64,000 nt of DNA, taken from positions 7,569 through 71,568 of the forward strand of contig JAKURM010000001.1 in assembly GCA_022449945.1 (NCBI GenBank), given 5' to 3'. Source of the stretch: Candidatus Thalassarchaeum sp. GTDB taxonomy: Archaea > Thermoplasmatota > Poseidoniia > Poseidoniales > Thalassarchaeaceae. The position numbers were made by a program, and so were the translations under genes. Under the pieces are notes generated by a model. That model was not told the origin of the DNA. It did not search any database and saw only the letters and a list, made by a program, of their open reading frames with translations. Shown piece by piece: positions 4,054 to 61,106 of this stretch. How positions within the stretch are numbered: position 1 is the first letter of the stretch; the number at the start of each line of letters is the position of its first letter.

Positions 4054-4054
4054 C

Positions 4055-6047
<1,993 letters not shown>

Positions 6048-13069: not shown

Positions 13070-13808
13070 GGGGGACTCAACGGGAATCGACCTCGAGTAC
13101 TTCTTCGAGGACCTTTCAGGCGAGGATTCAACTAGGATTGCCGGAGCTATTTTGATAATCATTGGAAGCATCTTGGGTGTCCAGCTAGGAATAATGCTAA
13201 TCTCTGCAGACCCCGGAGAAGTCCTATCTGGAAATCTAGACTCCACGACAAAGTACGCCGATGTTTCCGGCATTGTAAGCACTGCATTGGTTGACAATAA
13301 CACCGGCGGAGATCCAGTAGAAGGGGTGAAGGTCAGACTTCTAGGATCAGATGGAACCACCACGGGAAGGGAGACTTTCACGGATTCCAACGGACGCTTC
13401 ACAATTCCAGATGTCCTGAGAGAACCCTCCATCCTATCAGTCACCCATCCTGGTAACAATACCACTAAGATTTACTTGGTTCCAGGAGATAACGCTCAGA
13501 TTGCCGTTACCCTAACTCCTGGAAACGGCGAGCAGATTATCGATATATTGGTGGAGAGTGATTTGGGAGAATCTGTATCCTTGGCCACTGCAATAGCGGC
13601 TCTGACAATTCTTCTGGGTCTTGCAGGCTGCTATGGGTGTGTGGAGGCATACAGGGGTAGCAGCTACAGGAGATCTTGGTGGCTTGCATTCCTCGGACTT
13701 TGGAGCCGTGGTATGATATTCATTGGACCTCTATTAATCCTAACGGGTATGGGCCTGGTGACCCTAACTAGAGAGCAGTTTTCCGGAGGCAAGAACTCGA
13801 ATTCTTGA
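13050..13808 (+). CDS. membrane protein with carboxypeptidase-regulatory-like (CarbopepD_reg-like) beta-sandwich domain
   Basis: N-terminal TM, VKVRLLGSDGTTTGRETFTDSNGRFTIPDV motif, C-terminal TMs. Overlaps the QC 3' end by 20 nt. Confidence 0.45.
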   Translation: MMMVTDEGDSTGIDLEYFFEDLSGEDSTRIAGAILIIIGSILGVQLGIMLISADPGEVLSGNLDSTTKYADVSGIVSTALVDNNTGGDPVEGVKVRLLGSDGTTTGRETFTDSNGRFTIPDVLREPSILSVTHPGNNTTKIYLVPGDNAQIAVTLTPGNGEQIIDILVESDLGESVSLATAIAALTILLGLAGCYGCVEAYRGSSYRRSWWLAFLGLWSRGMIFIGPLLILTGMGLVTLTREQFSGGKNSNS

Positions 13809-13814
13809 TTGATC

Positions 13815-15155
13815 ATGTATCTGTTCTCAGTAGAGGGTGGAGACGGAAGTGGCAAGGGGCTAGCCACGAAGATCGTTTCCGATGTTCTGGAAAGGGAGTT
13901 TTCGTTTTCTTCTGTTGAAATTACCGGCGAACCACGTAGGGATCATGCATTGGGCCGCTTAGCAATAGATTCAGTCAGAAAGAAGACGATGACTCCCGAA
14001 CAAGAAGCCGGACTTTTTGCTGCAGATAGGTTGGACCACTCTCATGGTTGGATACTCCCTCGTTTATTGGAGGGAAAGGCAGTAGTTAGCGAGAGGAACA
14101 TCCACTCTTCATTGGTCTACCAAGGAATAGTAGGGGATGTTGGAGTCGATAGAGTTGCCCATATGAATTCAGCAGCCCTCATTCCCGATTTGTGTATTTG
14201 GATAGATTGCGACCCTGGCGTTGCAATGAAAAGAATTAGTAGCGAGACATTGAGGGGTGTTTCTAACAAGTCTGAGTATTTCGAGACAACAGACTTGCAG
14301 AAAAGAATTAGGGAGGGCTATGCAAACCTCCTTTCCGGAGATTTGGAGATGCCCACTCCGTTCGATATGGGTGCAATATTGGGGCCAATTTCCAATGAAG
14401 GCTCGCAGGATCAACTAAGGCGCTTCATTACGGACGGAATCCGGTCATTCTTACACGGCAAGCCCCCTCCGATAAATGTGGAGAAGGAACTCGTCGATCA
14501 ATTCCAGATTCGTTCCATGGTACGATTATCTCGAGGTCAGAGCAAACTCTCCGGCCTTGGAATTGAACCAGCAAAAAGCAAGACTGACTGGCTAGATGGG
14601 AATCCTCCGTGGAAGGTACTAAAGATGGCCCAACTCGCTCATGAGAAGGTCCTATCTTCGGCTTCGGATGAAGAAAGGCAGCACATGCCAAAAAATATCC
14701 TCAACCATTCGATGTCATCTATTTGTGGTACTTTGTCTCTTGTGCACACGGCAGACATCTCTGAACTCAGGTCTGCTATGGGTCCTGTGCGGTGCGTCTC
14801 CGAAAGACATACGCAGCGGACAGTAAAATTCCTCAAAGATCACTCAGGATGGATTTCACAACATAAGTCGCTAATCGGAAGAGATGCACCGCGTTCACAA
14901 TTGAAGGAGGAAAATTTCCCTTTTGGGAGGCTCGTTCTAGCAATCTGGCCATTCAGAAGGGAGATCAGGAAATGGCAGACTGCCAATCCCGGTACACACC
15001 CGAGATTTTGCATGGGACAACTAGTCAAGTCTGAAAGGTTTGAATCAGCGACTCACGATTCGATTGCAAGACTTTCCATCCTTGGGAGTGGGAGGGGTGG
15101 GATTGATACTCCTCAAAATCCCGATTCTCTGGTGGATTGGTGGACTGGGAAGTAG
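13815..15155 (+). CDS. tmk: thymidylate kinase fused to ~250-aa uncharacterised C-terminal domain
   Basis: N-terminus LFSVEGGDGSGKG (P-loop), DRxxxS region; typical TMPK is ~200 aa but the ORF continues to 447 aa. Start ATG is 7 nt after the upstream stop. Confidence 0.7.
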   Translation: MYLFSVEGGDGSGKGLATKIVSDVLEREFSFSSVEITGEPRRDHALGRLAIDSVRKKTMTPEQEAGLFAADRLDHSHGWILPRLLEGKAVVSERNIHSSLVYQGIVGDVGVDRVAHMNSAALIPDLCIWIDCDPGVAMKRISSETLRGVSNKSEYFETTDLQKRIREGYANLLSGDLEMPTPFDMGAILGPISNEGSQDQLRRFITDGIRSFLHGKPPPINVEKELVDQFQIRSMVRLSRGQSKLSGLGIEPAKSKTDWLDGNPPWKVLKMAQLAHEKVLSSASDEERQHMPKNILNHSMSSICGTLSLVHTADISELRSAMGPVRCVSERHTQRTVKFLKDHSGWISQHKSLIGRDAPRSQLKEENFPFGRLVLAIWPFRREIRKWQTANPGTHPRFCMGQLVKSERFESATHDSIARLSILGSGRGGIDTPQNPDSLVDWWTGK

Positions 15156-20671: not shown

Positions 20672-23600
20672 TCAGAGGTCTACTCTTTCTCCGCAAACGG
20701 GGCATTTGGTAGCGACAACTCCCTCGCCCGCGGAGAACCTTCCCCCACAGTTTGCACAAATTGTCGGTTTCCCTCCGACGAACTGACTTCCGGGTGCAAT
20801 ATCGGGGAATGGCAATTTATCCGGACTAACAACTTCTCCTTCTAAGATTTCAGCATCAGAAATAGGCATGCTGCCGGACTCGGCCCTTTTCTCTCTGCGC
20901 CCCCTCCTAGCGGAGGCCCCCGTGTCTTGCTCGGAACTCGACTCTACCAACTCAACCAAATTGGCATCTACTGAAATGTCGGAATCATCGACCAAGTCAA
21001 CTATGTCATCCTCCATTCGCACTTGGGTGCCATCATCGATAGCCCTTCTCTTGCCAATCCACCTAATTCCTTGGGCAGAAAGTGATACTAGTGTCACTAG
21101 GCCAAGAATGAGAATTGCGAAGGCTACTCCAATCACTAGAATCTCAAAACTTTCCTGGTCAAGTCCCAATGATGATCTTACCCGATCAACCAGGTCAACA
21201 TCCCTGATATCGCTGTCATCGTCAATTAGGGACCTGATTTGCCAACCGCTCGGAGTAGAGACAACTAGCATGCTTTCCCCGAGTTCGGGCGATCTATCTG
21301 CCATTTCGAATTGCCCTGAGACAATGACATTGGAAAGCCCGATCCAATTCCCCTCATAGCTGACTTTTCCGAATTCCACTTGAGGCCCATATGGCCCAAC
21401 TCTGTCGAAAATCACCTGCAAGCCATTAGCCGTCTCGATGATCTCCGAACCTGTCATCCCTCTAGCAGGGATTCGAGACTCCATTCCCTCTTCAGCTTTG
21501 AATCTTGAATCCGCCACAATCGAGACCAATTCCGAGTCTTGGGGGTCTCCCTCTCTCCAGATTGCGATTATACGATCCTCCTTGTCCTCAACAACAACGG
21601 CCAATTCAGGAAATGAAGCTTCATCCCCTACTGCCTTCTTGTAACTCCATGTCGAGTCAGAAATCCCCCCATGGGCATACCATAGGCCAATCCTCTCAAC
21701 TCCTGTTGTGTCGTTCCTACTTGTCTGGTAAAGGAGATGGCCCTGTTCATGCCCGAACTCTATTGCAAGCGGTTCTGATAATGATGGTGGAACATCTATG
21801 TCCGAAATTATGCTCGGATTTTGCGTCCAATCAGAAGAAGAGACCGGAGCATCAGCGTATATGGTGAAGATGTTTGTAACATCATCCATGGTTCCTCCTG
21901 TGAAAATATCCCTGTGGTAACCTGCAACGATGATTTCTGTATCCTTAACATCCAAGTCAACTCCCCAGTATTTTCCATCCGAAAGTGGCATTCCACCTAG
22001 GAGGTCTTGAATCGGGGCCATTCTGCATGTCGGGTCAATTGTCGAGTAGCTCACTGTCTGCATTAGGAAGCCGTTCGAGTCCAAATACCTCCTAGTCCAA
22101 ACTAGATGTGCATAGCCATCTTGAGTACTATGCACTGCTAGGTCTCCCGACCAACGATCCTCCATGATGTTGGTACATTGAATTAGTGACTTTGAAGGAG
22201 TAAGGCGGTAAAGGTACAGAGTCCCTTCCTTTTCGCTAATCAATATGTCACCCTCTTTTTTGTCAATACTGATTATCTCTATGGGTTCTTCCCCGATGTT
22301 GATATCAGCCGCCCTCGGCCCGGTCAAGGTTGAGCTGTCTACAAGGATCGTCTTGGACAGGTCATTGTTTGACCAGTCCAGGTCACTTCCATCTTCCACA
22401 ATCGCATTTATCCTGATATCCCTAGGACCAGAACCGTTTGGTGTGTAGTAGAAAGAAATCGTTGAGTGGGAACCTCCCAAGACAAATGGAGTGCTAGAGT
22501 TGCCAATCTGCTCCCACCCCCTCTCGGTCTTCTCTTCGAGAATACCAATCACTTCCATTGAATCTGTGGAACCTAGATTGTCCACCCTTGCCTCTATGAT
22601 GACTTGTTCTCCCGGCCGAGGAACTGCCGGACTGGTTGATATTGAGCCAGACCTAATTGCCAGGTCGACTCCTGGTGGCCTAGGGAGAACGGCGAATGTC
22701 CCAGAAAGTTGATTGTTCGAATCGTCCAATTCTTGAATAGAGTTCAACGGATCGATTGTAATTCCAATCTGCGCATCTCCTTCTGTACTTGGGTTCCAGT
22801 ACAGTACAATCTCTACGAATTCTCCAGTGTCTATGTTCGGGATGACGTACTCGTCTCTTCTAGAACCGCTTTCCTCCAGAATCACTCCGACATCGGTTGC
22901 CGCCTTGTCGCCGGTATTGCGCATAGTTGCCCTGACTTCCAGGAAAGTGTTAACATACGCCTCTTTCATTGGTATACCAAACTCTTGGACTGAGATCGAA
23001 CTACTTACGAACTGCAAATCTGGCTGTGGAGGGACATTGTCTACTACAACGAATCTACGTATCTCATCCGTAACTACTCCCGGGGCACTGATGAGCCTGA
23101 CAGACAGCCTATACTCGTCGTCTTTGACATTAGTGGTATCCCAGTTGAAACTCCAATCTTTCCATCCATAGTCCCCTTCGACGCACCGGGTGTCGCTTTG
23201 CTCTTCCCTGAACATGTGTACGCAGTATGGGTGATCGTCTACTTCGCCCGGACTGGAGCCATGCCCTATTCCATATGCGTCCCAGGTACCATCACTGTAG
23301 AATGCCCCTTCTTCCCAGTCCTCACTATCCAACCTCCATTGAATTGTTCCATTGAAAACCGATTGGAATTGACCCCTGACCTGCACAGATCCCGATACTT
23401 CATCAAGCCCGCTTGGTGACTCCAGGGTGATGTTGACCCTCCCAACCGGGAATGAGAACTCCGTGGTATTGCTCCATCTGCCGATATCGTTTCTTGCAGC
23501 AACCTCTCCATATACCATCACTTCACTGTACTCTTCGGGCAAATTGGGGACCGTGAAGGGGACGGTCCAATTGGTGATCCCGATTGGATTAGTCCAATCT

Positions 23601-25618
23601 ACTAACATAGATGCTGTTGTCGGCTTGTTGTACTCTTCTCTGTAGTTTATCCTAACCCGAACTAGGACTTCTTCTATCGTACCATTGTCCTCCCCATCTT
23701 CATCAATGTGCCCACGGAGGTTGTATGACTCGCCCTCAATAAGCCACGAGTGCTTTGCTGGGCTCTCTATCTCGACCCAGTGTCCTTGTTGGGGGTCTCC
23801 TGGGCCCAGGCTCTGGTTTGTATTACCACCTCCGGTACCAAACATTTCGCTAGCCACTAATCCCCCATCGATTATTCCGAATCCGTATTTTTCATTCCAT
23901 GAGTAGCCTTGGTATGTATCATCAGTAGACCATTCGTCTCTAAACTCCGATCCAGCCATCAGGAACTCCCTGATTGCCTCACTCCTGCTACCATCTTCCG
24001 AATCCATGAAGTCCATTTTCCTAGACTCCCCGATTTCCATCATGATTGCTACCAGTCCCGCCACAGCAGGCGTGGACATGCTTGAACCTGACTTCTGGAC
24101 ATAGTCATCCTTGGCCCTATTGACATCAGACCCCGGGATGATGCCGGAAGACTCAGCGTGCTTGGCCGAATTGATGTTTGATCCCGGGGCCACGACCCAC
24201 GGCTTCATTTCGTCATAGGAGTCGGCATCTCCGTCGTCCTGCCTCGGACCGTAGTTTGAACTGGAAGAAATCTGGTCATCCTCCCTATCTATCGAATTTT
24301 TGTCATCTAGCCAACCAACTGTAATTGCGGTGTCAGCCGAACCAACTGAGTTTACGTTGTTCGCACCATCGTTCCCTATTGCTGCAACGCACACCAACCC
24401 ACTTTCGGAAGCCTGGTTGACCAGATTCGCCTCTGCCGAGGTCCCGTCTTCGTTGTTGTCAGATGCTCCGGTACTGGCACGGCCGAAGGACATCGAGACA
24501 ACCTGGATTCCCCTGCTTGACTCGTTATTTCCCCAGTCGGTATCTTTGTTGTTTATCACCCATTGAAGTCCGGCTAGTATCGATTGTGAATTCCCCCCGC
24601 CGTAGTCCTCCATTACCTTGACGTCAACTAGGTAGGAGCCAGGGGCGTACCCTTGTACAACTCTAGAAGAGTCGCCTGTTCCCAGTGCGATTCCGGCTAC
24701 ATGCGTACCATGCCCATCTCCGTCATCCGGGTCTTCCTCCGAGCATCCAGATTGGCCGACTCCCGTCGAATCGCATCCTGCCACCCACTTTGGATCCTCG
24801 AGGTCGTCTGGCTCGTTTGAGTTGTCATTGTTGTCATCCGAAAAATCGTCAAGGGAGAAGTGCTCGTTATCCACTCCAGTGTCCAATATAGCAATCACAA
24901 TTCCAGAACCATGGTACCCAAGACCTCTGATGGCATCATCGTACACGTCGGATTGGCGGACCTTGGATCCTTTTGCTGCCTTGTCCAAGTAGGGAACGAT
25001 TACGTTTTGCTCTTCTACCAGGACAACCCCCTCCAATCCCCAGATTTCCATCAGGGAGCTAACAGGCACGTGATCCAGAACAATTGCATCTAAGTTGTCC
25101 ATCGGCATGAACCAAGACCCATCCTGTTCCCAGCCATGGGACTCTATGACTTCCCTGATGGAATTGATATCAGAGGTCCCAGGGTGCCATGCATAGTGGA
25201 CAATTATGGCTACAGTTTGTCTTCCATCATCCCCCAATATGGAAGTCTTGGAAACCGATTCCCTCTCTTCCAAGATTATTTTTTGTAGTCTATCATCAAG
25301 TCCATTTGAGTCAGCATCTGACCAGAATCCGTACCACCAACCATATTCCATAGCAGGGGGCGAGGAGTCAAGTGGGGTGAATTCCGGTGAGCGATTCTTT
25401 TCTTCACAGAGTAAGAATTCACAGAAGGACATATCGGCATCATTGCTTGATGGCTCGTTCAATGCCTCGTTGGCATCATTGGAGAGATTTCCTGAGGCCA
25501 TTCCAACCGAAATATCGAGCACCAACAACATCAAGGCAGCGATAATTGGTGTGACTGAACCAACCCTTTTTGACATGGCTCTCGTAGAGAGCCAAAGTAA
25601 TGGCCTGTATAACTCCAA
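20672..25618 (-). CDS. giant exported subtilisin-like (S8) serine protease, single C-terminal TM anchor, cytoplasmic tail ending in C4 zinc ribbon
   Basis: 1648 aa. Catalytic triad motifs VIAILDTGVD / HGTHVAGIA / GSSMSTPAVAG. TM ILVIGVAFAILILGLVTLVSL near residue ~1480. Tail has an acidic stretch, RRGRREKR, and CANCGG...KCPVCGE. Confidence 0.85.
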   Translation of the reverse strand: MELYRPLLWLSTRAMSKRVGSVTPIIAALMLLVLDISVGMASGNLSNDANEALNEPSSNDADMSFCEFLLCEEKNRSPEFTPLDSSPPAMEYGWWYGFWSDADSNGLDDRLQKIILEERESVSKTSILGDDGRQTVAIIVHYAWHPGTSDINSIREVIESHGWEQDGSWFMPMDNLDAIVLDHVPVSSLMEIWGLEGVVLVEEQNVIVPYLDKAAKGSKVRQSDVYDDAIRGLGYHGSGIVIAILDTGVDNEHFSLDDFSDDNNDNSNEPDDLEDPKWVAGCDSTGVGQSGCSEEDPDDGDGHGTHVAGIALGTGDSSRVVQGYAPGSYLVDVKVMEDYGGGNSQSILAGLQWVINNKDTDWGNNESSRGIQVVSMSFGRASTGASDNNEDGTSAEANLVNQASESGLVCVAAIGNDGANNVNSVGSADTAITVGWLDDKNSIDREDDQISSSSNYGPRQDDGDADSYDEMKPWVVAPGSNINSAKHAESSGIIPGSDVNRAKDDYVQKSGSSMSTPAVAGLVAIMMEIGESRKMDFMDSEDGSRSEAIREFLMAGSEFRDEWSTDDTYQGYSWNEKYGFGIIDGGLVASEMFGTGGGNTNQSLGPGDPQQGHWVEIESPAKHSWLIEGESYNLRGHIDEDGEDNGTIEEVLVRVRINYREEYNKPTTASMLVDWTNPIGITNWTVPFTVPNLPEEYSEVMVYGEVAARNDIGRWSNTTEFSFPVGRVNITLESPSGLDEVSGSVQVRGQFQSVFNGTIQWRLDSEDWEEGAFYSDGTWDAYGIGHGSSPGEVDDHPYCVHMFREEQSDTRCVEGDYGWKDWSFNWDTTNVKDDEYRLSVRLISAPGVVTDEIRRFVVVDNVPPQPDLQFVSSSISVQEFGIPMKEAYVNTFLEVRATMRNTGDKAATDVGVILEESGSRRDEYVIPNIDTGEFVEIVLYWNPSTEGDAQIGITIDPLNSIQELDDSNNQLSGTFAVLPRPPGVDLAIRSGSISTSPAVPRPGEQVIIEARVDNLGSTDSMEVIGILEEKTERGWEQIGNSSTPFVLGGSHSTISFYYTPNGSGPRDIRINAIVEDGSDLDWSNNDLSKTILVDSSTLTGPRAADINIGEEPIEIISIDKKEGDILISEKEGTLYLYRLTPSKSLIQCTNIMEDRWSGDLAVHSTQDGYAHLVWTRRYLDSNGFLMQTVSYSTIDPTCRMAPIQDLLGGMPLSDGKYWGVDLDVKDTEIIVAGYHRDIFTGGTMDDVTNIFTIYADAPVSSSDWTQNPSIISDIDVPPSLSEPLAIEFGHEQGHLLYQTSRNDTTGVERIGLWYAHGGISDSTWSYKKAVGDEASFPELAVVVEDKEDRIIAIWREGDPQDSELVSIVADSRFKAEEGMESRIPARGMTGSEIIETANGLQVIFDRVGPYGPQVEFGKVSYEGNWIGLSNVIVSGQFEMADRSPELGESMLVVSTPSGWQIRSLIDDDSDIRDVDLVDRVRSSLGLDQESFEILVIGVAFAILILGLVTLVSLSAQGIRWIGKRRAIDDGTQVRMEDDIVDLVDDSDISVDANLVELVESSSEQDTGASARRGRREKRAESGSMPISDAEILEGEVVSPDKLPFPDIAPGSQFVGGKPTICANCGGRFSAGEGVVATKCPVCGERVDL

Positions 25619-31248: not shown

Positions 31249-31841
31249 AGCTGACCAAGCACCAGCCTAGGATCTGGATAGTCCCTGAGTGACTGATCTC
31301 TTTCTTTTGGAGAAACCACTCCCGGAAGGTCATGAGTCTCTGGCTCAATAAGGGAAAGCTGGAAGTGAAGGTGTGGCTCCCATCCTCCGTTCTCATGAAA
31401 GTCACCTAGCCACCCAATCACCTCTCCAGCAGAAATTTTCTGACCTGCATACTTACCTTCCAGAGAAGCAGCATCAAGATGGCCATAGAGTGCCCAAAAA
31501 CACTCGCCTCCGATTTCGTGCCTTGTGATGACGACGTTTCCATAATCGCCCTTTTCAGGATTATAACCAAAGTGGGAAATTTCCCCCTCCATGAATGCCA
31601 TGCATGGAGTACCTACCGGTGCCCCAATGTCGATACCGACATGTAAGAATCGCTCACCTTGAAAAATCTCTGTAGTGTACAAACCCGGCCTCAGCTCATC
31701 GTATTTCCCAACGCTGTAAACGGTTTCCGGTGTACGCCAATTTCCACCTGTTAGGTCAAGTACAGAATATTCCTCAGGCATTCTGATGACTTCTTCGAAT
31801 CGTTGCGCGCCCCAATCCACCATGGTCATCCGATGTACCAT
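31242..31841 (-). CDS. M23-family (LytM-like) metallopeptidase
   Basis: HVGIDIGAPVGTP (HxxxD), GDYGNVVITRH, PHLHFQL (HxH). Confidence 0.75.
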   Translation of the reverse strand: MVHRMTMVDWGAQRFEEVIRMPEEYSVLDLTGGNWRTPETVYSVGKYDELRPGLYTTEIFQGERFLHVGIDIGAPVGTPCMAFMEGEISHFGYNPEKGDYGNVVITRHEIGGECFWALYGHLDAASLEGKYAGQKISAGEVIGWLGDFHENGGWEPHLHFQLSLIEPETHDLPGVVSPKERDQSLRDYPDPRLVLGQLY

Positions 31842-33063
31842 CTAGCAATGATTCCTCCTCCTCGGCCCTTTCAGCAAGGCTCCTGATTCCACTCTTCTCA
31901 CGAAGGTCCTTTTTCGTCTTGGCCCCCAGATCCTTTAGTTTCTCAGTTTGCTTGATTATGCTCCCTGATCCTTCTATCAAGCGATTTTCCGCCAAATCAT
32001 ATGCCTCCTTAGCTTGGCGAAGCTCGAAGCCGACACTAGTGAAAGACTCAAGAAAAAGCACTATTTTGTCGTGGAGCTTTCCCGCTCGATCTATCAACTC
32101 AATCTGGTTTTTTGTCTGATTCTCTTTTTGCCACATTTCTTTGACCAGAAGCAATACGATATCCAGCGCACCACTGGGCGTAATCTTCACTTTGTCGTAC
32201 GAGCTAACTTCCGAATAGAGCCCCGGGTTGTACCTTATCGCGTCGTAGAATGCACTGTCAAGCGGGGGGATCATTAGTACGAATTCAAGAGTTTTGACTC
32301 CCTCTAAATGATGATAGTTCTTCGAAGCGAGTTTTTTTGCATGAGAGCGAATCGATTCGCAGTGTCTTTTCATCGCCGTATTTTTTTCTTCTTCGTCTTG
32401 AGCCTCGATAAACTCGGTATACGCCTTTAGAGAGACTTTTGAATCTAGAACAACCTGTCTATCATTTGGAAGATTAATAATGAAATCAGCTAACTTCCTT
32501 GACCCATCTGCAGCTGTTTCCGAATACTGCTTAACGTAGTCCCGACCTTCTGCAAATCCCATTCTTTGGAGGGAATTCTCCAGAACTACTTCTCCCCATG
32601 TACCCTGGACTTGAGAGTCCCCCTTCAGTGCACGTGTGAGGTTGTTTGCATCATCTGAGATCTTTATCCCTGCTTCCACCATTGAGTCCAATCTCTCTCT
32701 AAGTGCAACGTTCATGTCGTTGTTGCCCCTTTCCAAATCAAGCAGTGCCTTCTGGTATTCCCCAATACTGGTTGATAATTTTTCAGTGGCCGTTTTGAAA
32801 GAAGACTCCTTTTCTTTGTCGGCCAACTCGATTGCCGTTGAGAAAGCTTCTCCCGCTGCCAATTTATACGCATCAAGCATTTGTTCTCGAGTTCCCTCGA
32901 AAACCTCTTCTTTGGCCTCAATAAGGGCCCTGAGGCGATACAACTCTTGTTCTGATGCAGTAGACTCAGCTGACCCTTTGCCTTTGGAAAGTAACCAACC
33001 TATGCTTGTACCAAATATCAGTCCGAGGACAATATATGCCAGTCCGAGCGCTTCCACATCCAA
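31774..33063 (-). CDS. rmuC: DNA recombination protein RmuC-family
   Basis: N-terminal TM anchor, long coiled-coil, conserved QVQGTWGEVVLENSLQRMGF...YVKQ and C-terminal RmuC domain. Confidence 0.75.
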   Translation of the reverse strand: MDVEALGLAYIVLGLIFGTSIGWLLSKGKGSAESTASEQELYRLRALIEAKEEVFEGTREQMLDAYKLAAGEAFSTAIELADKEKESSFKTATEKLSTSIGEYQKALLDLERGNNDMNVALRERLDSMVEAGIKISDDANNLTRALKGDSQVQGTWGEVVLENSLQRMGFAEGRDYVKQYSETAADGSRKLADFIINLPNDRQVVLDSKVSLKAYTEFIEAQDEEEKNTAMKRHCESIRSHAKKLASKNYHHLEGVKTLEFVLMIPPLDSAFYDAIRYNPGLYSEVSSYDKVKITPSGALDIVLLLVKEMWQKENQTKNQIELIDRAGKLHDKIVLFLESFTSVGFELRQAKEAYDLAENRLIEGSGSIIKQTEKLKDLGAKTKKDLREKSGIRSLAERAEEEESLLDGTSDDHGGLGRATIRRSHQNA

Positions 33064-33143
33064 GCATTATAATCGGGAGTATTTCAACTATCATGAAGAA
33101 TAGCAACTTTAGATTAATTCAATCGTCCCCCTCCCGGGATAAC

Positions 33144-33758
33144 ATGCGCCTCCGAACCCTGGCTATCGAACTCTCAAAACTGGAGGGCTTAACTGCGCAG
33201 AAATTAGAGTTCGAGCAATACCAAACTGGTGGGGATTTGGCCGCCCGTTGGCTTAGCGATATCCTGGCTTTTGATGATATTTCTGATGATTGCAGAGTAG
33301 CTGATTTAGGATCCGGAAATGGCATTCTAGGGATAGGGGCGGTACTTTTGGGAGCGAAATCAGCATTATTAGTTGAAATTGATGAAGAATCATGCTCAGT
33401 TTGCCGGAGAAACATCGCGTCTCTGGGTTTGGAAGAGCAGGTGGAGGTCGTGCAACTAGAAATTGGAAGGGATGATTTGGAAATTGGAGATTCTGATATC
33501 ATCATTTCCAATCCTCCTTGGGGCCGGCAAACAAGGGCGTCCGACAGGCCATTTATGGAAGAAATAATTTCTACCGGAGTAAAGGCCCATTTGATGCATA
33601 GTGCAGAAGCTACCCATGTTGAGAAATTTTTCATCGGTTCAGGCTGGGGCACAGAAAAATATGGCATTGCGGACTTTGCTCTGCCTTCTGCATATGATCA
33701 TCATACCAGGGAAAGAGGGAGAACAAAGGCAGTTTTCTGGCGAATGACCCCTCCATGA
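33144..33758 (+). CDS. METTL5-like N6-adenine rRNA/nucleic-acid methyltransferase (class I SAM MTase)
   Basis: MRLRTLAIELSKLEGL...KLEFEQYQT N-terminus like archaeal MJ0882/METTL5, ADLGSGNGILG SAM motif, NPPWG catalytic motif. ATG at 33144 chosen to avoid overlap with the divergent rmuC. Confidence 0.65.
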   Translation: MRLRTLAIELSKLEGLTAQKLEFEQYQTGGDLAARWLSDILAFDDISDDCRVADLGSGNGILGIGAVLLGAKSALLVEIDEESCSVCRRNIASLGLEEQVEVVQLEIGRDDLEIGDSDIIISNPPWGRQTRASDRPFMEEIISTGVKAHLMHSAEATHVEKFFIGSGWGTEKYGIADFALPSAYDHHTRERGRTKAVFWRMTPP

Positions 33759-33814: not shown

Positions 33815-35068
33815 ATGGCAGCATCCATAGGTGACCACGTTACTCCCGGCTCTCCAATAGAATTTGGCCCCGGGTCAGATTTTGGCGAGGGAATTCATGT
33901 TTCAGAAAAGGGTGCCGTGGCAGTCCTTTCAGGGCAAATAGTGAGTGATTCTGGGAAAATTTCTGTCGAATCATCCGTACCACCAATAAATTCGCCGAAG
34001 ATGGGCGATGTATTGATCGGTGAGGTGAACAGACTCAACGAGAAGACTGCAGAGATCAGAGTTCTTCATATTGAGTCAAACGAAGGGGGCCATAGGGCCG
34101 TACCGGCACTGAAGCTGTTCGCTGACATCTACGTTTCCGAGATAGTGGATCGATTCATCCCATCAGCGGGGGATGCCATGAGGAAGCGCGACATCGTCAG
34201 GGCGAAAGTGATCAAGGTTGAGCCGATGTTGAAGGCCACAACCAAGGGGGACTCCAAACTCGGGGTCCTCCATGCAGCATGTCCGCCTTGCGGGGTAGAA
34301 CTAGTTGTGAGCGAAAAGACCCCTGACTTCAACGTAGAATGCCCTCGATGCGACTACAGGGGTTTCAGGGCCCTTTCAAACGGCTTCGGGCATGGATTCG
34401 ATATCCCAAAAGGCTCTGACATCCAGAGCCTAAATCGTCCTGGCCAGAGATGGTCAGAAGAAGCGGAATCAATGCTTGGTCACGATGGAGCCCGCCCGTA
34501 CCTCTCACCCGTAGCCGATCATAGGCGTGGCTGGGCCCACGAGATCCCAGCATCAGCCAGGAGATCGCAATCCACAAGGGGCGGTGGGAGGCAGAAGAGG
34601 GAGATGTTCCCTACCGAATGCACTCTTTGCGGCGACTCGACCAAGGTTCCCTTCAAACCCACGCCCGGGAAGCCAATTCGTTGTAGGGGGTGCATGGAGA
34701 AAGTAGAGTCGGGCAATGCCGACAAGGATTCCCTCGCCAAGGAAAGGAAGATCATCAAGATGGCCAGAGAGAAGTCCCAAGGCGAAATTGGTGCCAAACT
34801 CTTCGTCGGTGGAATATCCTATGACGCATCCGAGGATGACCTCAGGGAGGCGTTTTCAACCCATGGCAAACTGAAGGAAGTCCACCTGGCCATGGACAAA
34901 GAAAAGAACAGGCCAAAGGGATTCGCATTCGTGACATTCTCCAGCAAGGAAGAAGCAAAGAAGGCAATTAAGGCATTGAATAACACCGAATTCAAGGGAA
35001 GGCGGATATCTGTAGAGGAATCAAAACCCCGTGGCCGAAATCGAAGCCAGGGTCGTAGAAGAAGATAA
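33815..35068 (+). CDS. csl4: exosome RNA-binding subunit Csl4 fused to an extra zinc ribbon and a C-terminal RRM domain
   Basis: Residues ~60-200 colinear with archaeal Csl4 (S1 domain GDVLIGEVNRL...VLHIESN...DIVRAKVIKV, Zn-ribbon CPPCG...ECPRCD). Then CTLCGDS...CRGCMEK. Then a canonical RRM (RNP2 LFVGGI, RNP1 KGFAFVTF). Confidence 0.7.
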   Translation: MAASIGDHVTPGSPIEFGPGSDFGEGIHVSEKGAVAVLSGQIVSDSGKISVESSVPPINSPKMGDVLIGEVNRLNEKTAEIRVLHIESNEGGHRAVPALKLFADIYVSEIVDRFIPSAGDAMRKRDIVRAKVIKVEPMLKATTKGDSKLGVLHAACPPCGVELVVSEKTPDFNVECPRCDYRGFRALSNGFGHGFDIPKGSDIQSLNRPGQRWSEEAESMLGHDGARPYLSPVADHRRGWAHEIPASARRSQSTRGGGRQKREMFPTECTLCGDSTKVPFKPTPGKPIRCRGCMEKVESGNADKDSLAKERKIIKMAREKSQGEIGAKLFVGGISYDASEDDLREAFSTHGKLKEVHLAMDKEKNRPKGFAFVTFSSKEEAKKAIKALNNTEFKGRRISVEESKPRGRNRSQGRRRR

Positions 35069-35097: not shown

Positions 35098-36867
35098 GTG
35101 CTGGTTGACATGCCAGGGTGGCTAGTACTCGATGGTTACGAGGACGAGCCTGCAGCATTCGGGGTCCCTAATTACGTGGGCTTCCACATCCGTTACATTT
35201 GCGGTGTTTTCGAAAACCGAGGAATCCCGTACGAATACCTGACAATAGACCAGCTGAGAATCAATAAGAGAAAGGGCAAATCACCAATTCCCTCAGAATT
35301 GGAGGGTGTGGTAATCCTAGCTGGAGCAGTGGTTCCGGGGAAGTACGTCAGGGGAACTCCGATTAGCAGCAGGGAACTAGACCACTTACTCGCAGATATC
35401 CCCAAGGGGATCCCGGTTCTTTGTGGGGGTTGGGCAATTAGGCAGTGGAGATATTCAGGCTGGACCCCTCTGAGGGAATCCCTATTCTGTACGGTTCAGG
35501 ATGTCGATGCAACTCTGAATCACTATTTGGAGACTGGAGTCTGGGAAAATAGGAAGAGAGATGCCAAACAATGGGGAAGATGGGCTTTGTTGGGGGCTAA
35601 ATCGAAAGCGGTCACCAATCATCCTGATCTATTTTCTGCAGACGGCTCTGCTGGTCCCCTAACCTACGAAGTCGAACTCTACCAGGGATGCGTGCGTTTC
35701 AAGCGAGGATGCAAGTTCTGCATAGAGCCAAAAAAAGGAGTCCCACTATGGAGGGAAAGGAACGATGTTATCAATGAGATCACAAGTGCTCTTGATTCTG
35801 GAGTAAGGAATGTCAGGATAGGCGGGGCAACTGACATCTACACTTACAAGGCGGAAGGAGTGGAAGAACTGGAATACCCATTGCCCAATCCCGAGCCCAT
35901 CTCGCAGATACTCTACCAACTCAGGGAGGACGAACGTGTCGAAGTACTGCATGTGGACAATGCCAATCCCTCGATTATCGCTGAAAACATGGAGCCAGCT
36001 AGGGAGATAACCCAGACCCTTGTGGATACCCTGACGGATGGGGCGGTCCTTTCCTTTGGTCTCGAATCTGCCGATACCAAGGTCCATGATGAGAACTGGT
36101 TGAATTGCAACCCGGGTCAACTTTTGGAAGCAGTTCGAATGGTGAACGAGTTCGGCCGTGAAAGAGGCGAAAGAGGACTCCCAAGACTACTTCCTGGTCT
36201 GAACTTCATCGCAGGACTAAATGGCGAGACAGAAGCAACTTATTCTGAGAACATCAGGCTGTTGAGAAAATTGAGGAGCGAGGGCCTGTGGCTTAGGAGG
36301 ATAAACATCAGGCAAGTAGAGGGGCAGGGATTCCAGGAAGTTCCGACAAGAATATTTAGAGAATTCAAGAAGAATGTGAGGGAGGAGATTGACACACCCC
36401 TCCTGGAAGAAATGCTTCCAGTCGGGACAGTTCTGAAGGACGTATGGTGGGAGTCACACAAGGATCGAATACGAAGGCCTGAGCAAGTGTTCGATCCATC
36501 TTTCAGAGACCCCCTCATTCATGGTAGTTCGGGAATCTCATTCGGTAGGCAGATTGGCGCTTATCCCATACTTGTCGGAGTTCGATACAGAATTCCTTTG
36601 GAGACACGCTCAGACATAATGGTGACGAGTCATGGGAGTAGGAGTGTCTCTGGAGTTGAGTTGGGTCTTGATGTGAATAGTGTAACACAACAGCAACTGG
36701 AGGCAATTCCTGGTATTGGAAAGAAGTCAGCCTGGGCCATCGTAAGAACTAGGGCCATGCTCGCCGGGCCCGAGTCCCAAGCATCATTCTCCACTGTAAC
36801 TGAAGCATTCGAAGAGTCAGGCCTAGATGTGCCAGAGTTGGCAACGACTGTCCTCGGGTCCCATTAG
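35098..36867 (+). CDS. putative radical-SAM-like Fe-S enzyme with C-terminal helix-hairpin-helix motif
   Basis: 589 aa. Cys cluster GCVRFKRGCKFC (Cx6Cx2C, non-canonical spacing). C-terminal LEAIPGIGKKSAWAIV HhH. Family not resolved by eye. Confidence 0.4.
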   Translation: MLVDMPGWLVLDGYEDEPAAFGVPNYVGFHIRYICGVFENRGIPYEYLTIDQLRINKRKGKSPIPSELEGVVILAGAVVPGKYVRGTPISSRELDHLLADIPKGIPVLCGGWAIRQWRYSGWTPLRESLFCTVQDVDATLNHYLETGVWENRKRDAKQWGRWALLGAKSKAVTNHPDLFSADGSAGPLTYEVELYQGCVRFKRGCKFCIEPKKGVPLWRERNDVINEITSALDSGVRNVRIGGATDIYTYKAEGVEELEYPLPNPEPISQILYQLREDERVEVLHVDNANPSIIAENMEPAREITQTLVDTLTDGAVLSFGLESADTKVHDENWLNCNPGQLLEAVRMVNEFGRERGERGLPRLLPGLNFIAGLNGETEATYSENIRLLRKLRSEGLWLRRINIRQVEGQGFQEVPTRIFREFKKNVREEIDTPLLEEMLPVGTVLKDVWWESHKDRIRRPEQVFDPSFRDPLIHGSSGISFGRQIGAYPILVGVRYRIPLETRSDIMVTSHGSRSVSGVELGLDVNSVTQQQLEAIPGIGKKSAWAIVRTRAMLAGPESQASFSTVTEAFEESGLDVPELATTVLGSH

Positions 36868-36880
36868 AAGAGTCCAATTC

Positions 36881-37623
36881 TCAAACATAGAAGTCAGTCG
36901 ATACTTCTGCCTCTTCTTCTCCTAGAATATTCTCTATCGTTCCCATAGGATCAATCTCTTTCATCAGCCTCGCTGCAGTCCTTTCTGTGGTATCTAGATC
37001 CAGGTCGAGAGGAATATCGAATGCCTGTTCAATCCATTTTGCCATTCGGTCGGCAGCCATAACGTCACAACTAGTTCCAACCGTCTCGGCTATGATTCCA
37101 GCAGCATTCACTCCCTTCAAAGAGGATAGAGCCAGCCCCATCCCTGCTATCCCAATCATTCCACTATTGGGCTGCTCCCTGGATACTATGTCCTGAATCT
37201 CGCATCCGCGCAAATTACGTGTATCGATCGATCTTCTGGGCCAGACGCTAATCCGGCTAGAACTAGCAACCTCGGGGCGGACGATTTCGATGCCAGTTCA
37301 AGTATCGATTCGGAAACCTCAAACTGGCCCGCAGCGGTCATTGGCTGCATTAGGCCAGTGATTCCAACCAGTGTTTCCCCATTGGGGATTAGAATTGACT
37401 TCAATTCCAACCTCGGCGGGCGAATCAGACCCTCCTCATCCAGGTTTGCATGGGGGGGGAAGTCCGGATGAATGATCCAACCCAACGTTCTCGATGGATG
37501 CTTCTTGACCAATCCGTCTATCACAATCTTGCCAACGTTTCCTATTCCTGGGACTGCCTCCAGAATGGTGCAGCCCTCTGGCATAGACTCCCCTTCGAGC
37601 CAGTGAACTGTGGACCGACTCAT
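36881..37623 (-). pseudogene. PAC2-family proteasome assembly chaperone (archaeal COG1938), apparently frameshifted into two overlapping ORFs (37186..37623 and 36881..37213)
   Basis: N-terminal part has the GIGNVG motif. The two frames overlap ~37186-37297. The combined length of ~255 aa equals a normal PAC2 protein. nop10 stop and PAC2 start overlap (ATGA). Confidence 0.5.
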
Positions 37624-52620: not shown

Positions 52621-53898
52621 TCAGGGCCACGAGAGGTTTTTCCATTTCTCTGGATCCTCTTCCTTCCAGTCGATTTCCTCCAAGAGTTCCAGAACCTGTT
52701 CTGAACTCGGCAGGTCTTCCTCTATTTGCCTACGGTGCAACCACCCCTTTAGTTTCCCAAGGCGTCTTCCGGGCTCAAGTCCAGTGACTTCGGATAGAAT
52801 ATTTCCGTCTATTAGTGGAGAATTTCCGGCGGAATTTTCCGGTAATGAATTGATGGCATCCTCCATCTCCATGGCATTTTTCCCCAATCCTTCGGAATAA
52901 AATAATAATTCTCGTTGTAGGTATTCGGGCAGAAAAGTTCTGAATCTTCTGACGCTCCCGGGAGATAAGTCGAAGTCAACGTTTTTTGTATCATGTAGGA
53001 AACTTATGGAAAGGGAATCATCATTAGAAATCTTGAGTAATTCTCTGAGGGTAAGTGACAATTCCTTTCCCGAATTTTCCTCAGGACTGCAAAGTAGGGC
53101 CAGGTTAACCCTCGGATTGTTAGAAAATTCCAAACCACAATCATGATCAATATCGGGCAATATTGAGTCCAAAATCCCATGTTCACCCATCAGTTCCAGA
53201 ATCTGTTTCACATTCCCCCCAGAGAGAATCATGCATAGTTCGCTCCAAATCCTCTCCTTTGAGACTCTTTCTAGCATTTGGACATTTGACCTGATTGCAT
53301 CACTTAGGGCTCGGTCAAGTGTTCGCATCCCTCCTTCTGAGTCATCAAGAAATCTGAATGCCCTCATAATCCTGAGGCCGTCCTCTGAAATTCTATCAGC
53401 GGCGTTTCCTACTGTTCGAATGACTCCAGCCCCTAGATCTTCCATTCCCCTTCCTTCGATGTCAATAATCTCCCCATTTTGGCTGATAGCCATTGCATTG
53501 ATTGTGAAATCGCGCCTGGACAGATCAACAAGGATGTCATCCCCAAAAGATACGTTATCGGGCCTCCTGCCATCTCCGTATCCGCCATCGCTTCGAAGGG
53601 TTGTCACTTCCCATATCCCTTCATTCGACTCCTCTTCTAGTCTAACAATCACAGTCCCATACTCCTCACCAACTAACAGTGTCCGAGGGAAAATTTCCTT
53701 GACTTCATCGGGCTTTAGCGTGGTCGCTATGTCTAAACATCCGCTTACATCCCTGCCCGAGAGAAAATCCCTGACCCATCCTCCCACAATCCAAGCTTTA
53801 CCATGTTCCCATATTTTTCCAAGTACCATTAGGTCATCATCCCCAAGGAACTCCCCAATTTCGACCTCCAATACTGGCACCTTCGCTTCACCGCGCAT
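52621..53898 (-). CDS. class II (bacterial/eukaryotic-type) tRNA nucleotidyltransferase/poly(A)-polymerase-family protein
   Basis: GGWVRDFLSGRDVSGCLDIAT resembles the GGxVRD...DxDxxT head domain, but the DxD spacing is non-canonical. 425 aa, no HD domain. Confidence 0.6.
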   Translation of the reverse strand: MRGEAKVPVLEVEIGEFLGDDDLMVLGKIWEHGKAWIVGGWVRDFLSGRDVSGCLDIATTLKPDEVKEIFPRTLLVGEEYGTVIVRLEEESNEGIWEVTTLRSDGGYGDGRRPDNVSFGDDILVDLSRRDFTINAMAISQNGEIIDIEGRGMEDLGAGVIRTVGNAADRISEDGLRIMRAFRFLDDSEGGMRTLDRALSDAIRSNVQMLERVSKERIWSELCMILSGGNVKQILELMGEHGILDSILPDIDHDCGLEFSNNPRVNLALLCSPEENSGKELSLTLRELLKISNDDSLSISFLHDTKNVDFDLSPGSVRRFRTFLPEYLQRELLFYSEGLGKNAMEMEDAINSLPENSAGNSPLIDGNILSEVTGLEPGRRLGKLKGWLHRRQIEEDLPSSEQVLELLEEIDWKEEDPEKWKNLSWP

Positions 53899-59217: not shown

Positions 59218-59715
59218 CTACTCCATCTTCTTCACCCTTAATGGGGCCCCACAGTCCTGGCATTCTCCCAGTTCCTCTTTTTTGAGGGTGACAAAATTGG
59301 GCTGTTCCGCTTTCGATTGGCAGCCGGAGCACCTCACTTCCCATTTCCAAACCGAGGAAATCCCACCAGTCTCGACTGGCAGCCATTCAACACCGGCATT
59401 CTTGCATAGATTCTGTAGCCTGTAATCATCCGTGTGCAACCTACCATTCTTCTCGATAGCCAATGCAAGGAGGCCGAGGTCAATAGAGGACAGACCTGAA
59501 ATATCACCTGTTTTTGATGCCAATTTTCTAGCAATCTCAACGGACTCATCAGTTGGAGTTTCCCAGTTTAGGTCCGACACCTCGAGAGAAATCATCCTTT
59601 CAGGAAATTTTCTTTCTACCTCTCCTTTCTGTCCCTCAAGAACGACAGCACCCGACATCCTCTCCACGGGCCATGAGATTAGGGCCGAGGTGTCCAGTAC
59701 ATCTACAGATTCCAT
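59218..59715 (-). CDS. nob1: Nob1-like PIN-domain endonuclease with C-terminal zinc ribbon (pre-16S rRNA D-site nuclease homolog)
   Basis: N-terminal PIN (DVLDTSALIS), C-terminal CSGCQS...CQDCGA. Confidence 0.65.
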   Translation of the reverse strand: MESVDVLDTSALISWPVERMSGAVVLEGQKGEVERKFPERMISLEVSDLNWETPTDESVEIARKLASKTGDISGLSSIDLGLLALAIEKNGRLHTDDYRLQNLCKNAGVEWLPVETGGISSVWKWEVRCSGCQSKAEQPNFVTLKKEELGECQDCGAPLRVKKME

Positions 59716-59806
59716 GGCCCCGGGTCGCCGTCAAGCAATTATAGGTCTTGTAAGCCACAATAATTACATTTGTCAAAGCAACGATTATGTCAATGGCATT
59801 GGACCA

Positions 59807-61011: not shown

Positions 61012-61106
61012 AACGGTATTGTCGAATAGGCTTTGTCCAATAATCCCTCAATATTAGAATACACGAGTTGAAAAATCAGCCCCAACTGGGACCCTTAGGA
61101 GATCAC

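Follow-up and report, generated by a model that had tools for sequence, protein, structure and literature searches.

Our analysis suggests, with a probability that we put at roughly 65%, that csl4 has been extended C-terminally in Poseidoniales by a flexibly tethered arm with which the exosome cap catches or selects its RNA. The gene on which we focused occupies positions 33815 to 35068 of the window, by which we mean the whole 64-kb stretch of Candidatus Thalassarchaeum DNA that was analyzed; this gene and the two genes that flank it lie on the + strand. It is a single open reading frame (ORF) of 417 codons plus stop that encodes a Csl4-extension-zinc finger-RRM fusion. The ORF begins with ATG and its sole stop is the terminal one, with 23 and 16 stops in the other two forward frames, and the encoded protein contains exactly 8 cysteines, every one of them within the two C4 sites. 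We refer to this architecture, a zinc finger plus an RRM on Csl4, as type A; it is found in Thalassarchaeaceae (MGIIb). In Poseidoniaceae (MGIIa), the same locus encodes type B, in which two RRMs are attached to Csl4.

The initial annotation had read the first ∼200 aa as archaeal Csl4, and HMM, PDB-sequence, fold, and comparative evidence support this reading. The N-terminal domain (aa 1-60, 33815 to 33994) is colinear with A. fulgidus Csl4, has ECR1_N Pfam matches in homologues, and is modeled by AF2 as beta strands (pLDDT 82-87); its dN/dS is 0.14. The S1 domain (aa 61-150, 33995 to 34264) is supported by the NCBIfam Csl4 match and by Foldseek and shows the lowest dN/dS of all regions, 0.036. 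The C4 zinc ribbon (aa 151-194, 34265 to 34396) aligns with that of A. fulgidus Csl4, and its cysteines C156, C159, C176, and C179, which lie in the motifs CPPCG (aa 156-160) and ECPRCD (aa 175-180) quoted in the initial annotation, are invariant in 100 type A and B sequences. The NCBIfam model for Csl4 (PRK09521) matched aa 22-191 with 84.5 bits (E=7.6e-24), narrowly under the 90-bit equivalog cutoff, and the NCBI pipeline labels close homologues "exosome complex RNA-binding protein Csl4." A PDB sequence search paired aa 10-194 with positions 5-177 of A. fulgidus Csl4, which is 179 residues long (2BA1; E=5.8e-12). An AF2 model for which 100 type A and B sequences were aligned reached a pLDDT of 75-91 over aa 1-200, compared with 30-59 for the Csl4 part when 18 close homologues were used alone. 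Foldseek on this model returned 2ba1_A as the top PDB match (E=8.4e-16, TM 0.73), followed by ∼18 eukaryotic Csl4 chains. The Csl4 order of N-terminal beta domain, S1 domain, and C-terminal zinc ribbon is therefore present by sequence alignment and by fold.

The ribbon is followed by a clade-specific extension without a Pfam family (aa 195-246, 34397 to 34552; LNRPGxRWSxEAE...LGHDGARPYLSPVADHRRG), which is nearly invariant in type A (dN/dS 0.049) and among the most conserved parts of the protein. Its residues N207, G210, R212, W213, E218, and D235 are common to all fusion types. Because residues 195-246 are highly conserved and shared in this way, the stretch that joins Csl4 to the finger is more than a neutral linker. 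AF2 predicts order for aa 195-220 (pLDDT 66-86) and gives values below 50 for aa 223-241. Next comes an Arg/Gly-rich spacer (aa 247-261, 34553 to 34597; pI 12), variable in length and RGG-like among homologues, in which pLDDT is again below 50 (aa 249-260); both low-confidence segments are flanked by confidently predicted domains.

The second Cys4 site (aa 262-298, 34598 to 34708) had been described as a further ribbon. The site itself is present, with the quoted motifs CTLCGDS at aa 269-275 and CRGCMEK at aa 290-296, but it is not a ribbon: its spacing, C269-x2-C272-x17-C290-x2-C293, is that of the CxxC-x17-CxxC treble-clef finger. Pfam zf_Tbcl_2 (PF23477) matched aa 262-296 with 43.6 bits (E=2.4e-11; cutoff 27), NCBIfam TIGR04272 scored 44.3 bits (cutoff 36), and the AF2 model has a beta-hairpin knuckle followed by a helix (pLDDT 77-83). 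In type A, all cysteines and the signature CT(L/M)C...VPFKPTPGKP.RCR.C are invariant, and dN/dS is 0.038. Zinc binding has been measured by ICP-MS in two M. mazei members of the CxxC-x17-CxxC family (PMC12704099), and by analogy we regard the finger of the Csl4 fusion as a putative zinc binder.

A long connecting alpha-helix of moderate conservation (aa 299-325, 34709 to 34789; AF2 helix 304-325, pLDDT 71-83; dN/dS 0.13) leads to a canonical RRM (aa 326-404, 34790 to 35026; dN/dS 0.046). Pfam RRM_1 (PF00076) matched aa 329-398 with 80.3 bits (E=9.5e-23; cutoff 20.7), which disposes of the concern that no significant RRM match would be found. The motifs RNP2 (LFVGGI) and RNP1 (KGFAFVTF) are present at aa 329-334 and 368-375, respectively, spaced as is normal for an RRM. 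AF2 predicted strands at 327-332, 353-361, 366-375, and 399-402 and helices at 340-348 and 378-388 (pLDDT 83-89), that is, the beta-alpha-beta-beta-alpha-beta topology expected for the RRM fold. In Foldseek, the domain matched the RRMs of RBM39 and HuR with TM 0.93-0.96 and superposed on RNA-bound RRMs with an rmsd of 0.7-0.8 Å. The AlphaFold model thus agrees with A. fulgidus Csl4 in the body and with solved RRMs in the arm. The RNP aromatics F330, F370, and F372 are invariant in type A, and judging from these conserved RNP residues, the RRM is predicted to bind single-stranded RNA. The protein ends in an Arg-rich tail (aa 405-417, 35027 to 35065; pI 12, K/R 7/13) that AF2 leaves disordered and that is basic across all type A homologues; the C-terminal half as a whole is strongly basic (pI 10). 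Together, the HMM, PDB-sequence, fold, and comparative results back the central claim of a Csl4 with additional putative single-stranded-RNA-binding modules.

As to where the RRM came from, an exhaustive search was dominated by eukaryotic multi-RRM proteins, and the PDB and NCBIfam matches do not separate a bacterial from a eukaryotic origin. The type A RRM is 38% identical to RRM1 and RRM2 of type B alike. Two candidate standalone RRM donors were rejected: P0203 begins at an internal Met of a type A gene (...CRDCMDKV...), and the N terminus of P0170 is an adapter-derived peptide, GSEMCIRDR.

We fetched 79 complete species-representative Poseidoniales loci, single-cell genomes among them, and found that a single ORF holds all four modules in every one of 80 cases (the window plus these loci). 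A scan of GTDB representative genomes, SAGs included, with the type A alignment as query gave 210 tblastn-confirmed matches in total, types B to D being mapped through protein searches only. Full-length homologues fall into more than 120 clusters of 59-99% identity from independent sources. The S1 domain, ribbon, extension, finger, and RRM are under strong purifying selection, with dN/dS between 0.036 and 0.055. The uninterrupted reading frame from Csl4 through the second Cys4 site to the RRM is thus borne out, the suggested search of other Poseidoniales genomes recovered the same architecture, and the check for a hidden stop or frameshift came back clean, with the same ORF in 79 other loci. 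We give next to no credence to a merger of adjacent csl4 and RRM genes through a frameshift introduced in sequencing, loss of a stop codon, or a chimeric assembly: the window does hold at least two indel-broken genes (PAC2, 36881 to 37623, and SufS, 61068 to 62342), but a frameshift or chimera is refuted by the homologue clusters, the 80 intact loci, and the dN/dS values, the identical single ORF recurs in hundreds of independent assemblies, the junction itself is highly conserved under in-frame purifying selection, and the seeming standalone RRM proteins are miscalled fragments (internal Met start; adapter-derived peptide).

We then considered the gene neighborhood. A methyltransferase gene (33006 to 33758; Pfam MTS/PrmA/Cons_hypoth95) is the conserved partner of csl4; its true start is probably well downstream of 33006, since its orthologues are 198-220 aa long. 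In 70 type A loci it immediately precedes csl4 in the same orientation, and it also lies upstream of csl4 in type B and type C loci. It also adjoins an unfused Thermoplasmata csl4, so the methyltransferase-csl4 pair is common to unfused Thermoplasmata csl4 and the fusion types, and the csl4 gene position is occupied by the fusion. The gene at 35098 to 36867, 29 nt past the fusion gene, is radical-SAM-like with a helix-hairpin-helix tail. Its matches are weak and under cutoff (Radical_SAM, 27.1 bits, cutoff 29.5; HHH_3, 21.4 bits, cutoff 27); its orthologue in loci L081/L082 carries a precomputed Radical_SAM match. In 54 type A loci, and also in type B loci, this gene follows csl4 in the same orientation. 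The suggestion that the surroundings are RNA related holds up, given a conserved methyltransferase-csl4 pair that has Nop10, eIF2-alpha, and L44e as neighbors. A second Csl4, RRM, or finger was absent from the 64-kb window and from 1.3 Mb of loci (79 loci, 10 kb either side). Among the window and the loci scanned, the fusion gene is, by gene position, the csl4 orthologue of its organism, and the finger-plus-RRM fusion is the standard csl4 of Thalassarchaeaceae, not a one-off.

The type B genes of Poseidoniaceae (e.g., P0130, P0435, and P0443) are positional orthologues, in the locus CcsA-NMD3-PGI-M23...MTase-csl4-radical SAM. They have the same Csl4 body and share the extension motif, LNxxGxRW...E...AD.R, but their first module is an RRM rather than a zinc finger, they carry an extra C-terminal motif (RSxRE..A..EEG), and overall identity to type A is only ∼30%. 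A C-terminal motif of the form S/K-R-R-E..A..EEG is common to types B to D and missing in type A. One type B lineage (P0135) has lost the ribbon cysteines. Rare Csl4 fusions carry two zinc fingers or one RRM. In other Thermoplasmata (P0478, P0480, P0481, and P0483), which have the same upstream methyltransferase gene, an RGG/GR-rich tail is joined to Csl4 at the same point, directly after the zinc ribbon; unlike in the fusion, this appendage is of low complexity and contains no folded domain, and these proteins lack the extension motif of Poseidoniales. The position after the ribbon thus appears to accrete putative RNA-binding elements repeatedly: RRM+RRM, two fingers, one RRM, or RGG tails.

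How might such a protein work? In the reading that we favor, aa 1-194, the Csl4 body, would be seated on the Rrp41/Rrp42 ring as an ordinary Csl4 is. Order is predicted for the first ∼25 residues of the extension and disorder for the ∼40 that follow, which comprise the conserved motif and the Arg/Gly spacer; this disordered stretch would tether the treble-clef finger, the rigid helix, the canonical RRM, and the Arg-rich tail. Each Csl4 of the trimeric cap would then bear a flexible arm that catches single-stranded RNA or chooses particular RNAs and passes these on to the S1 pore, to be phosphorolyzed in the 3'-5' direction or tailed. Encoded in cis, the arm would correspond to the RNA-binding add-ons that are recruited in trans by other exosomes. 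We infer that the protein assembles on the ring, that the finger and the RRM bind RNA, and that substrates are recruited in this way; with a pTM of 0.47, the AF2 model does not position the arm reliably with respect to the pore. A Pfam search across the entire window revealed no exosome core genes, and Rrp41, Rrp42, Rrp4, and DnaG were absent from the window and from the fetched loci (10 kb either side). A phmmer search of all window and locus ORFs for RNase PH relatives, with an approximate E. coli RNase PH query, gave no match. A more specific version of the proposal, which we offer only tentatively, is that family-specific targeting arms (finger+RRM versus RRM+RRM) have been swapped at one locus, changing RNA selection, that the motif at aa 221-246 docks a partner, and that the whole is an archaeal cis equivalent, of independent origin, of the eukaryotic adaptors.

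The arm might instead serve mainly for protein docking, with the RRM and finger coupling the exosome to the ribosome, DnaG, an aRNase J/ASH-Ski2-type helicase, or Sm-like proteins and with aa 221-246 as the partner motif. This segment is nearly invariant yet predicted to be disordered, a combination typical of docking motifs, and the additional C-terminal motif of types B to D could be read in the same way. RRMs can also bind peptides, as in RBM7-ZCCHC8 (PMC5322736), and in Sulfolobus DnaG attaches to the exosome through Csl4 and raises the binding of A-rich RNA (PMC3672285). However, the RNP1 and RNP2 aromatics that would stack on RNA are invariant, the arm, with its RG and Arg-rich segments, is strongly basic, and the elements that replace one another at this position (RRM, finger, and RGG tails) have nucleic-acid binding as their common denominator. 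We therefore regard docking as the main role as unlikely.

We are more doubtful still that the fusion acts away from the exosome as a free RNA-binding protein or chaperone made of S1, ribbon, finger, and RRM, the Rrp41/Rrp42 ring being lost or unused. Such a role would fit the absence of any exosome from some euryarchaeal orders (PMC7144898) and the Csl4 score just short of the equivalog cutoff. Against it, the whole Csl4 body is kept under strong constraint in both the N-terminal domain and S1, the fold matches ring-bound Csl4 chains, and the csl4 gene position is conserved. We know of no role for the Csl4 N-terminal domain besides contacting the ring.

To a similarly slight degree we entertain the idea that the arm replaces a missing cap function, namely that of the Rrp4 KH domain or of the RNA-binding domains of DnaG, which in that case would be missing or degenerate in Poseidoniales. 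The poly(A) preference of the Sulfolobus exosome is conferred by Rrp4 and DnaG, not by Csl4 (PMC4227792), and if these were lost, a specific RNA binder built into Csl4 could make up for it; the vanished ribbon cysteines of lineage P0135 show that the cap subunit is undergoing remodeling. Replacement is, however, a variant of the RNA-capturing arm rather than an alternative to it.

The archaeal exosome is the model for how the eukaryotic exosome cap feeds RNA into the ring. To our knowledge, the caps studied so far all make do with S1, KH, and zinc-ribbon domains, to which DnaG is added in trans. Poseidoniales (Marine Group II) are among the most abundant archaea of the surface ocean, and here an entire order carries classical RNA-binding modules covalently joined to Csl4, which places a canonical RRM within a core archaeal RNA-decay machine and would provide the first functional context for the uncharacterized PF23477 zinc finger. 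Annotation pipelines already label both halves of the fusion; what is new is that it belongs to a family of Csl4 fusions (finger+RRM, RRM+RRM, and rarer forms). Our survey of the literature on archaeal Csl4 with an RRM, on RRMs in Poseidoniales, and on the MGII exosome turned up no publication that describes the fusion. The genes currently go under "hypothetical," "CxxC-x17-CxxC domain protein," "nucleolin," or "cold-inducible RNA-binding protein" and should be named csl4. As sister families carry different modules, comparing them offers a natural test of how the choice of substrate is set by cap appendages, and since the proteins are small and soluble looking, in vitro reconstitution with the cognate ring should be feasible even though the organisms are uncultured.

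Compared with canonical archaeal Csl4 (A. fulgidus AF_0206, PDB 2BA1/3M7N, and S. solfataricus Csl4), the fusion has the same N-terminal domain, S1, and C4 ribbon in the same order; the canonical protein stops directly after the ribbon (179 aa), whereas the fusion runs 223 residues further. The finger recurs in standalone CxxC-x17-CxxC proteins, among them the small zinc-binding proteins of M. mazei (PMC12704099) and bacterial proteins with RGG and two fingers (P0482, P0484, and P0485; P0484 sits in a bacterial gene context). These share the flanking signature as well, with an RGG spacer before the finger and R-E-M-x4-C-x2-C...VPFKP...C-x2-C; they are, however, free and small, whereas the finger of the fusion is embedded in Csl4. 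Archaeal DnaG likewise endows the cap, on its Csl4 side, with added RNA-binding capacity and influences which substrates are preferred (PMC3672285, PMC4227792), but as a separate polypeptide in trans with unrelated domains, whereas the putative binder of the fusion is covalently part of Csl4. In eukaryotes, NEXT (the RRM of RBM7, the zinc-knuckle protein ZCCHC8, and MTR4) and TRAMP (the zinc knuckles of Air1/2) also use an RRM and small zinc fingers to bring RNA to the exosome (PMC5322736). This likeness is a functional analogy only and implies no homology of the fingers: NEXT and TRAMP are separate, helicase-containing complexes, whereas the archaeal version is a cis fusion without a helicase.

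The csl4 fusion gene at 33815-35068 (+) starts with ATG and extends over 417 codons to a sole terminal stop; in the two remaining forward frames, 23 and 16 stops occur across the same interval. The frame is uninterrupted, as the initial annotation had proposed when it described a Csl4-zinc-RRM fusion, and each motif quoted there was found in its place in the 417-aa product: CPPCG (aa 156-160), ECPRCD (aa 175-180), CTLCGDS (aa 269-275), CRGCMEK (aa 290-296), RNP2 LFVGGI (aa 329-334) and RNP1 KGFAFVTF (aa 368-375). The only cysteines of the product are the eight that make up two C4 sites. A Pfam search gave RRM_1 at aa 329-398 (E=9.5e-23), the predicted RRM scoring far above the cutoff (80 bits versus 20.7), and zf_Tbcl_2 ("probable treble clef zinc finger") at aa 262-296 (E=2.4e-11). 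In NCBIfam, TIGR04272 ("CxxC-x17-CxxC") matched above its cutoff, and the Csl4 equivalog PRK09521 covered aa 22-191 with 84.5 bits (E=7.6e-24), slightly under the 90-bit cutoff. Among PDB sequences, the sole significant match to the N-terminal 250 aa was Archaeoglobus fulgidus Csl4 (2BA1, E=5.8e-12); the alignment spans residues 5 to 177 of 179, which bears out the suggested colinearity with archaeal Csl4. The whole fusion protein otherwise matched hundreds of RRM chains.

Two genes in the window are broken. A frameshift divides the PAC2 gene at 36881-37623 (-) between the overlapping ORFs 36881-37213 and 37186-37623; this member of the proteasome assembly chaperone family is intact, as one ORF of 254 aa, in 31 related loci (for example, 13070-13834 of locus L017, 92-94% identity), and its split marks either an indel in the assembly or a pseudogene. 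A SufS-like cysteine desulfurase (Aminotran_5) at 61068-62342 (+), followed by SufE at 62377-62811, is likewise divided into two ORFs covering profile positions 1-158 and 185-371. These two genes suggest that the window assembly carries indel errors, so the frameshift check on the fusion matters; the fusion ORF is not among the broken genes. Elsewhere in the window, a PIN_6 ribonuclease-domain ORF at 59218-59715 (-) overlaps an opposite-strand VTT-domain membrane-protein ORF at 59432-60418 (+) by ∼280 nt, and the mechanical ORF list probably has the wrong start for one or both.

The Csl4-finger-RRM fusion is real and not an artefact. Searching 5.8 billion proteins yielded >120 clusters of full-length homologues (59-99% identity) from NCBI, JGI, ENA, Logan, and Tara assemblies, all with PF00076 and PF23477. 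There were 210 tblastn-confirmed matches in GTDB species-representative genomes, and the best 80 of them were all from Poseidoniales. Many of these 80 are named Thalassarchaeaceae or Thalassarchaeum (family names as in PMC6461757), the type species Ca. Thalassarchaeum betae among them, and several are single-cell genomes (AG-343-E09, AG-422-I20, AG-313-L18, and AH-273-K03). With four local HMMs, we found Csl4, extension, finger, and RRM in one ORF in the window and in 79/79 complete loci, the 80th being cut by a contig end; the initial annotation had suggested looking for the same architecture in this order. Nei-Gojobori dN/dS over 379 sequence pairs was 0.036 for S1, 0.055 for the ribbon, 0.049 for the extension, 0.038 for the finger, 0.046 for the RRM, and 0.13-0.15 for the N-terminal domain, helix, and tail. 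With synonymous sites close to saturation, these figures are approximate in absolute terms, but the comparison between regions holds. The added modules are constrained as strongly as the S1 core. Two database proteins considered as standalone RRM proteins were rejected as fragments of the fusion gene: P0170 begins with an adapter-derived peptide (MGSEMCIRDR), and the start called for P0203 is a Met inside the zinc finger (CRDC-M-DKV). Such fragments in public collections could mislead domain-origin analyses.

The fusion gene occupies the csl4 slot. A small methyltransferase (MTase) gene with MTS/PrmA/Cons_hypoth95 matches lies immediately 5' of csl4 on the same strand in 70 loci, a radical-SAM/HhH gene lies 3' in 54, and PAC2-Nop10-eIF2alpha-L44e is convergent downstream. 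An unfused csl4 on a soil Thermoplasmata contig has the same MTase directly upstream, which places the fusion gene in the csl4 slot and implies that the MTase-csl4 pair predates the fusion. No second Csl4-like ORF, RRM, or PF23477 finger was found in the 64-kb window or in 1.3 Mb of loci, and no rrp41, rrp42, rrp4, or dnaG was found in the window or fetched loci; the exosome is absent from some euryarchaeal orders (PMC7144898). Directly upstream of the pair lies a bacterial-type gene for the DNA recombination protein RmuC (31774-33063, -; E=4e-72), which holds this position in only 37 related loci. DNA gyrase A/B at 1348-6007 (-) is also bacterial type. Two secreted-type giants, a 1378-aa protein with multiple PKD domains (7916-12052, -) and a 1648-aa protein with subtilase and CARDB (20672-25618, -), are characteristic of the protein-degrading way of life attributed to Marine Group II.

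The window fusion belongs to a modular series. Csl4 is followed by finger and RRM in type A (this window; Thalassarchaeaceae), by two RRMs in type B (Poseidoniaceae), by two fingers in type C (two clusters only, MTase again upstream), and by one RRM in the rare type D. Type B matches type A in breadth, with >120 clusters that bear Ca. Poseidonia and Poseidoniaceae names and lie on contigs of up to 2.4 Mb, and its locus is exactly that of type A (CcsA-NMD3-PGI-M23...MTase-csl4-radical SAM); the two families therefore hold positional orthologues differing in module 1. In one type B lineage, represented on ∼2.0-Mb contigs by P0135, P0322, and P0324, the Csl4 zinc ribbon has lost two of its four cysteines (CSNSG...CHTSG in place of CxxCG...CxxC), as has eukaryotic Csl4. 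In alignments, types B, C, and D share a conserved extreme C-terminal motif, (S/K)(R/S)RE..A..EEG, which the type A protein of the window lacks and which may be one more short docking motif. In other Thermoplasmata, Csl4 proteins bear 80- to 130-residue RGG/GR tails at the attachment point used by the Poseidoniales fusions. In the 360-aa Csl4 of Methanolapillus millepedarum (P0479), a ∼170-residue Arg/Gly/Glu-rich low-complexity extension is N-terminal rather than C-terminal, so Csl4 bears disordered basic appendages beyond Thermoplasmatota as well. Free proteins with two fingers, one or more of them in a bacterial gene neighbourhood, likewise contain the unit "RGG spacer - REMxxxxCxxC...VPFKP...CxxC", and two small Methanosarcina mazei proteins of the CxxC-x17-CxxC family bind zinc (PMC12704099).

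Between Csl4 and the finger, aa 195-246 (34397-34552, +) are nearly invariant (LNRPGxRWSxEAExxLGHDGARPYLSPVADHRRG) and matched no Pfam family in our search of the fusion protein. This stretch is not a mere linker. It is predicted to be half ordered and half disordered; residues N207, G210, R212, W213, E218, and D235 are common to all fusion types, as is a reduced motif, LNxxGxRW...E...AD.R. A first AlphaFold run with 18 close homologues was confident only in the finger-helix-RRM part. A second, with 100 sequences from two divergent clades, gave a mean pLDDT of 77: 75-91 in the Csl4 body, 66-86 in the ordered aa 195-220, below 50 at aa 223-241 and 249-260, and 77-89 in the finger, long helix (aa 304-325), and RRM, with a disordered C-terminal tail; mutual domain placement is unreliable (pTM 0.47). 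Foldseek ranked A. fulgidus Csl4 first in the PDB (E=8.4e-16, TM 0.73 over the whole target), followed by ∼18 Csl4 chains of eukaryotic exosome structures, and the model RRM superposed on those of RBM39 and HuR with TM 0.93-0.96 and rmsd 0.7-0.8 Å.

In archaeal exosome structures, Csl4 trimers sit on the Rrp41/Rrp42 hexamer with S1 domains lining the pore and zinc ribbons at the rim, so the ribbon C terminus would be a solvent-exposed site tolerating appendages. The introduction of PMC3672285 is consistent with this layout. Two predicted-disordered stretches, together ∼30 residues within aa 223-261, separate the ordered start of the extension from the finger, and the C-terminal half of the protein, whose pI is 10, includes an Arg/Gly spacer and a tail rich in Arg. 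From these features we infer a tethered arm on Csl4 for RNA capture or selection, in up to three copies per complex, which would raise the local RNA concentration at the pore or bias substrate choice; the invariant disordered motif at aa 221-246 would most likely dock on the ring or another partner. A bacterial-type class-II nucleotidyltransferase at 52621-53898 (-), with a PolyA_pol head domain and PolyA_pol_RNAbd, belongs to the CCA-adding enzyme or poly(A) polymerase family; the usual archaeal enzyme is class I. It may have a bearing on RNA 3'-end metabolism beside an unusual exosome cap.

Both halves of the fusion are already recognised by annotation pipelines, as [quoted passage not shown] and "nucleolin" at JGI and as "Csl4" or "CxxC-x17-CxxC domain-containing protein" at NCBI. 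A full-text search of open-access papers and bioRxiv found no paper on an archaeal Csl4 with an RRM or PF23477. Modular and lineage-wide, the fusion elaborates a well-known subunit; it should come as a moderate surprise to specialists and can be tested directly in vitro. In Sulfolobus, DnaG binds via Csl4 and raises affinity for A-rich RNA (PMC3672285, PMC4227792), and the NEXT and TRAMP adaptors of eukaryotes, which feed the exosome through an RRM protein and/or zinc-knuckle proteins, offer no more than an analogy (PMC5322736).
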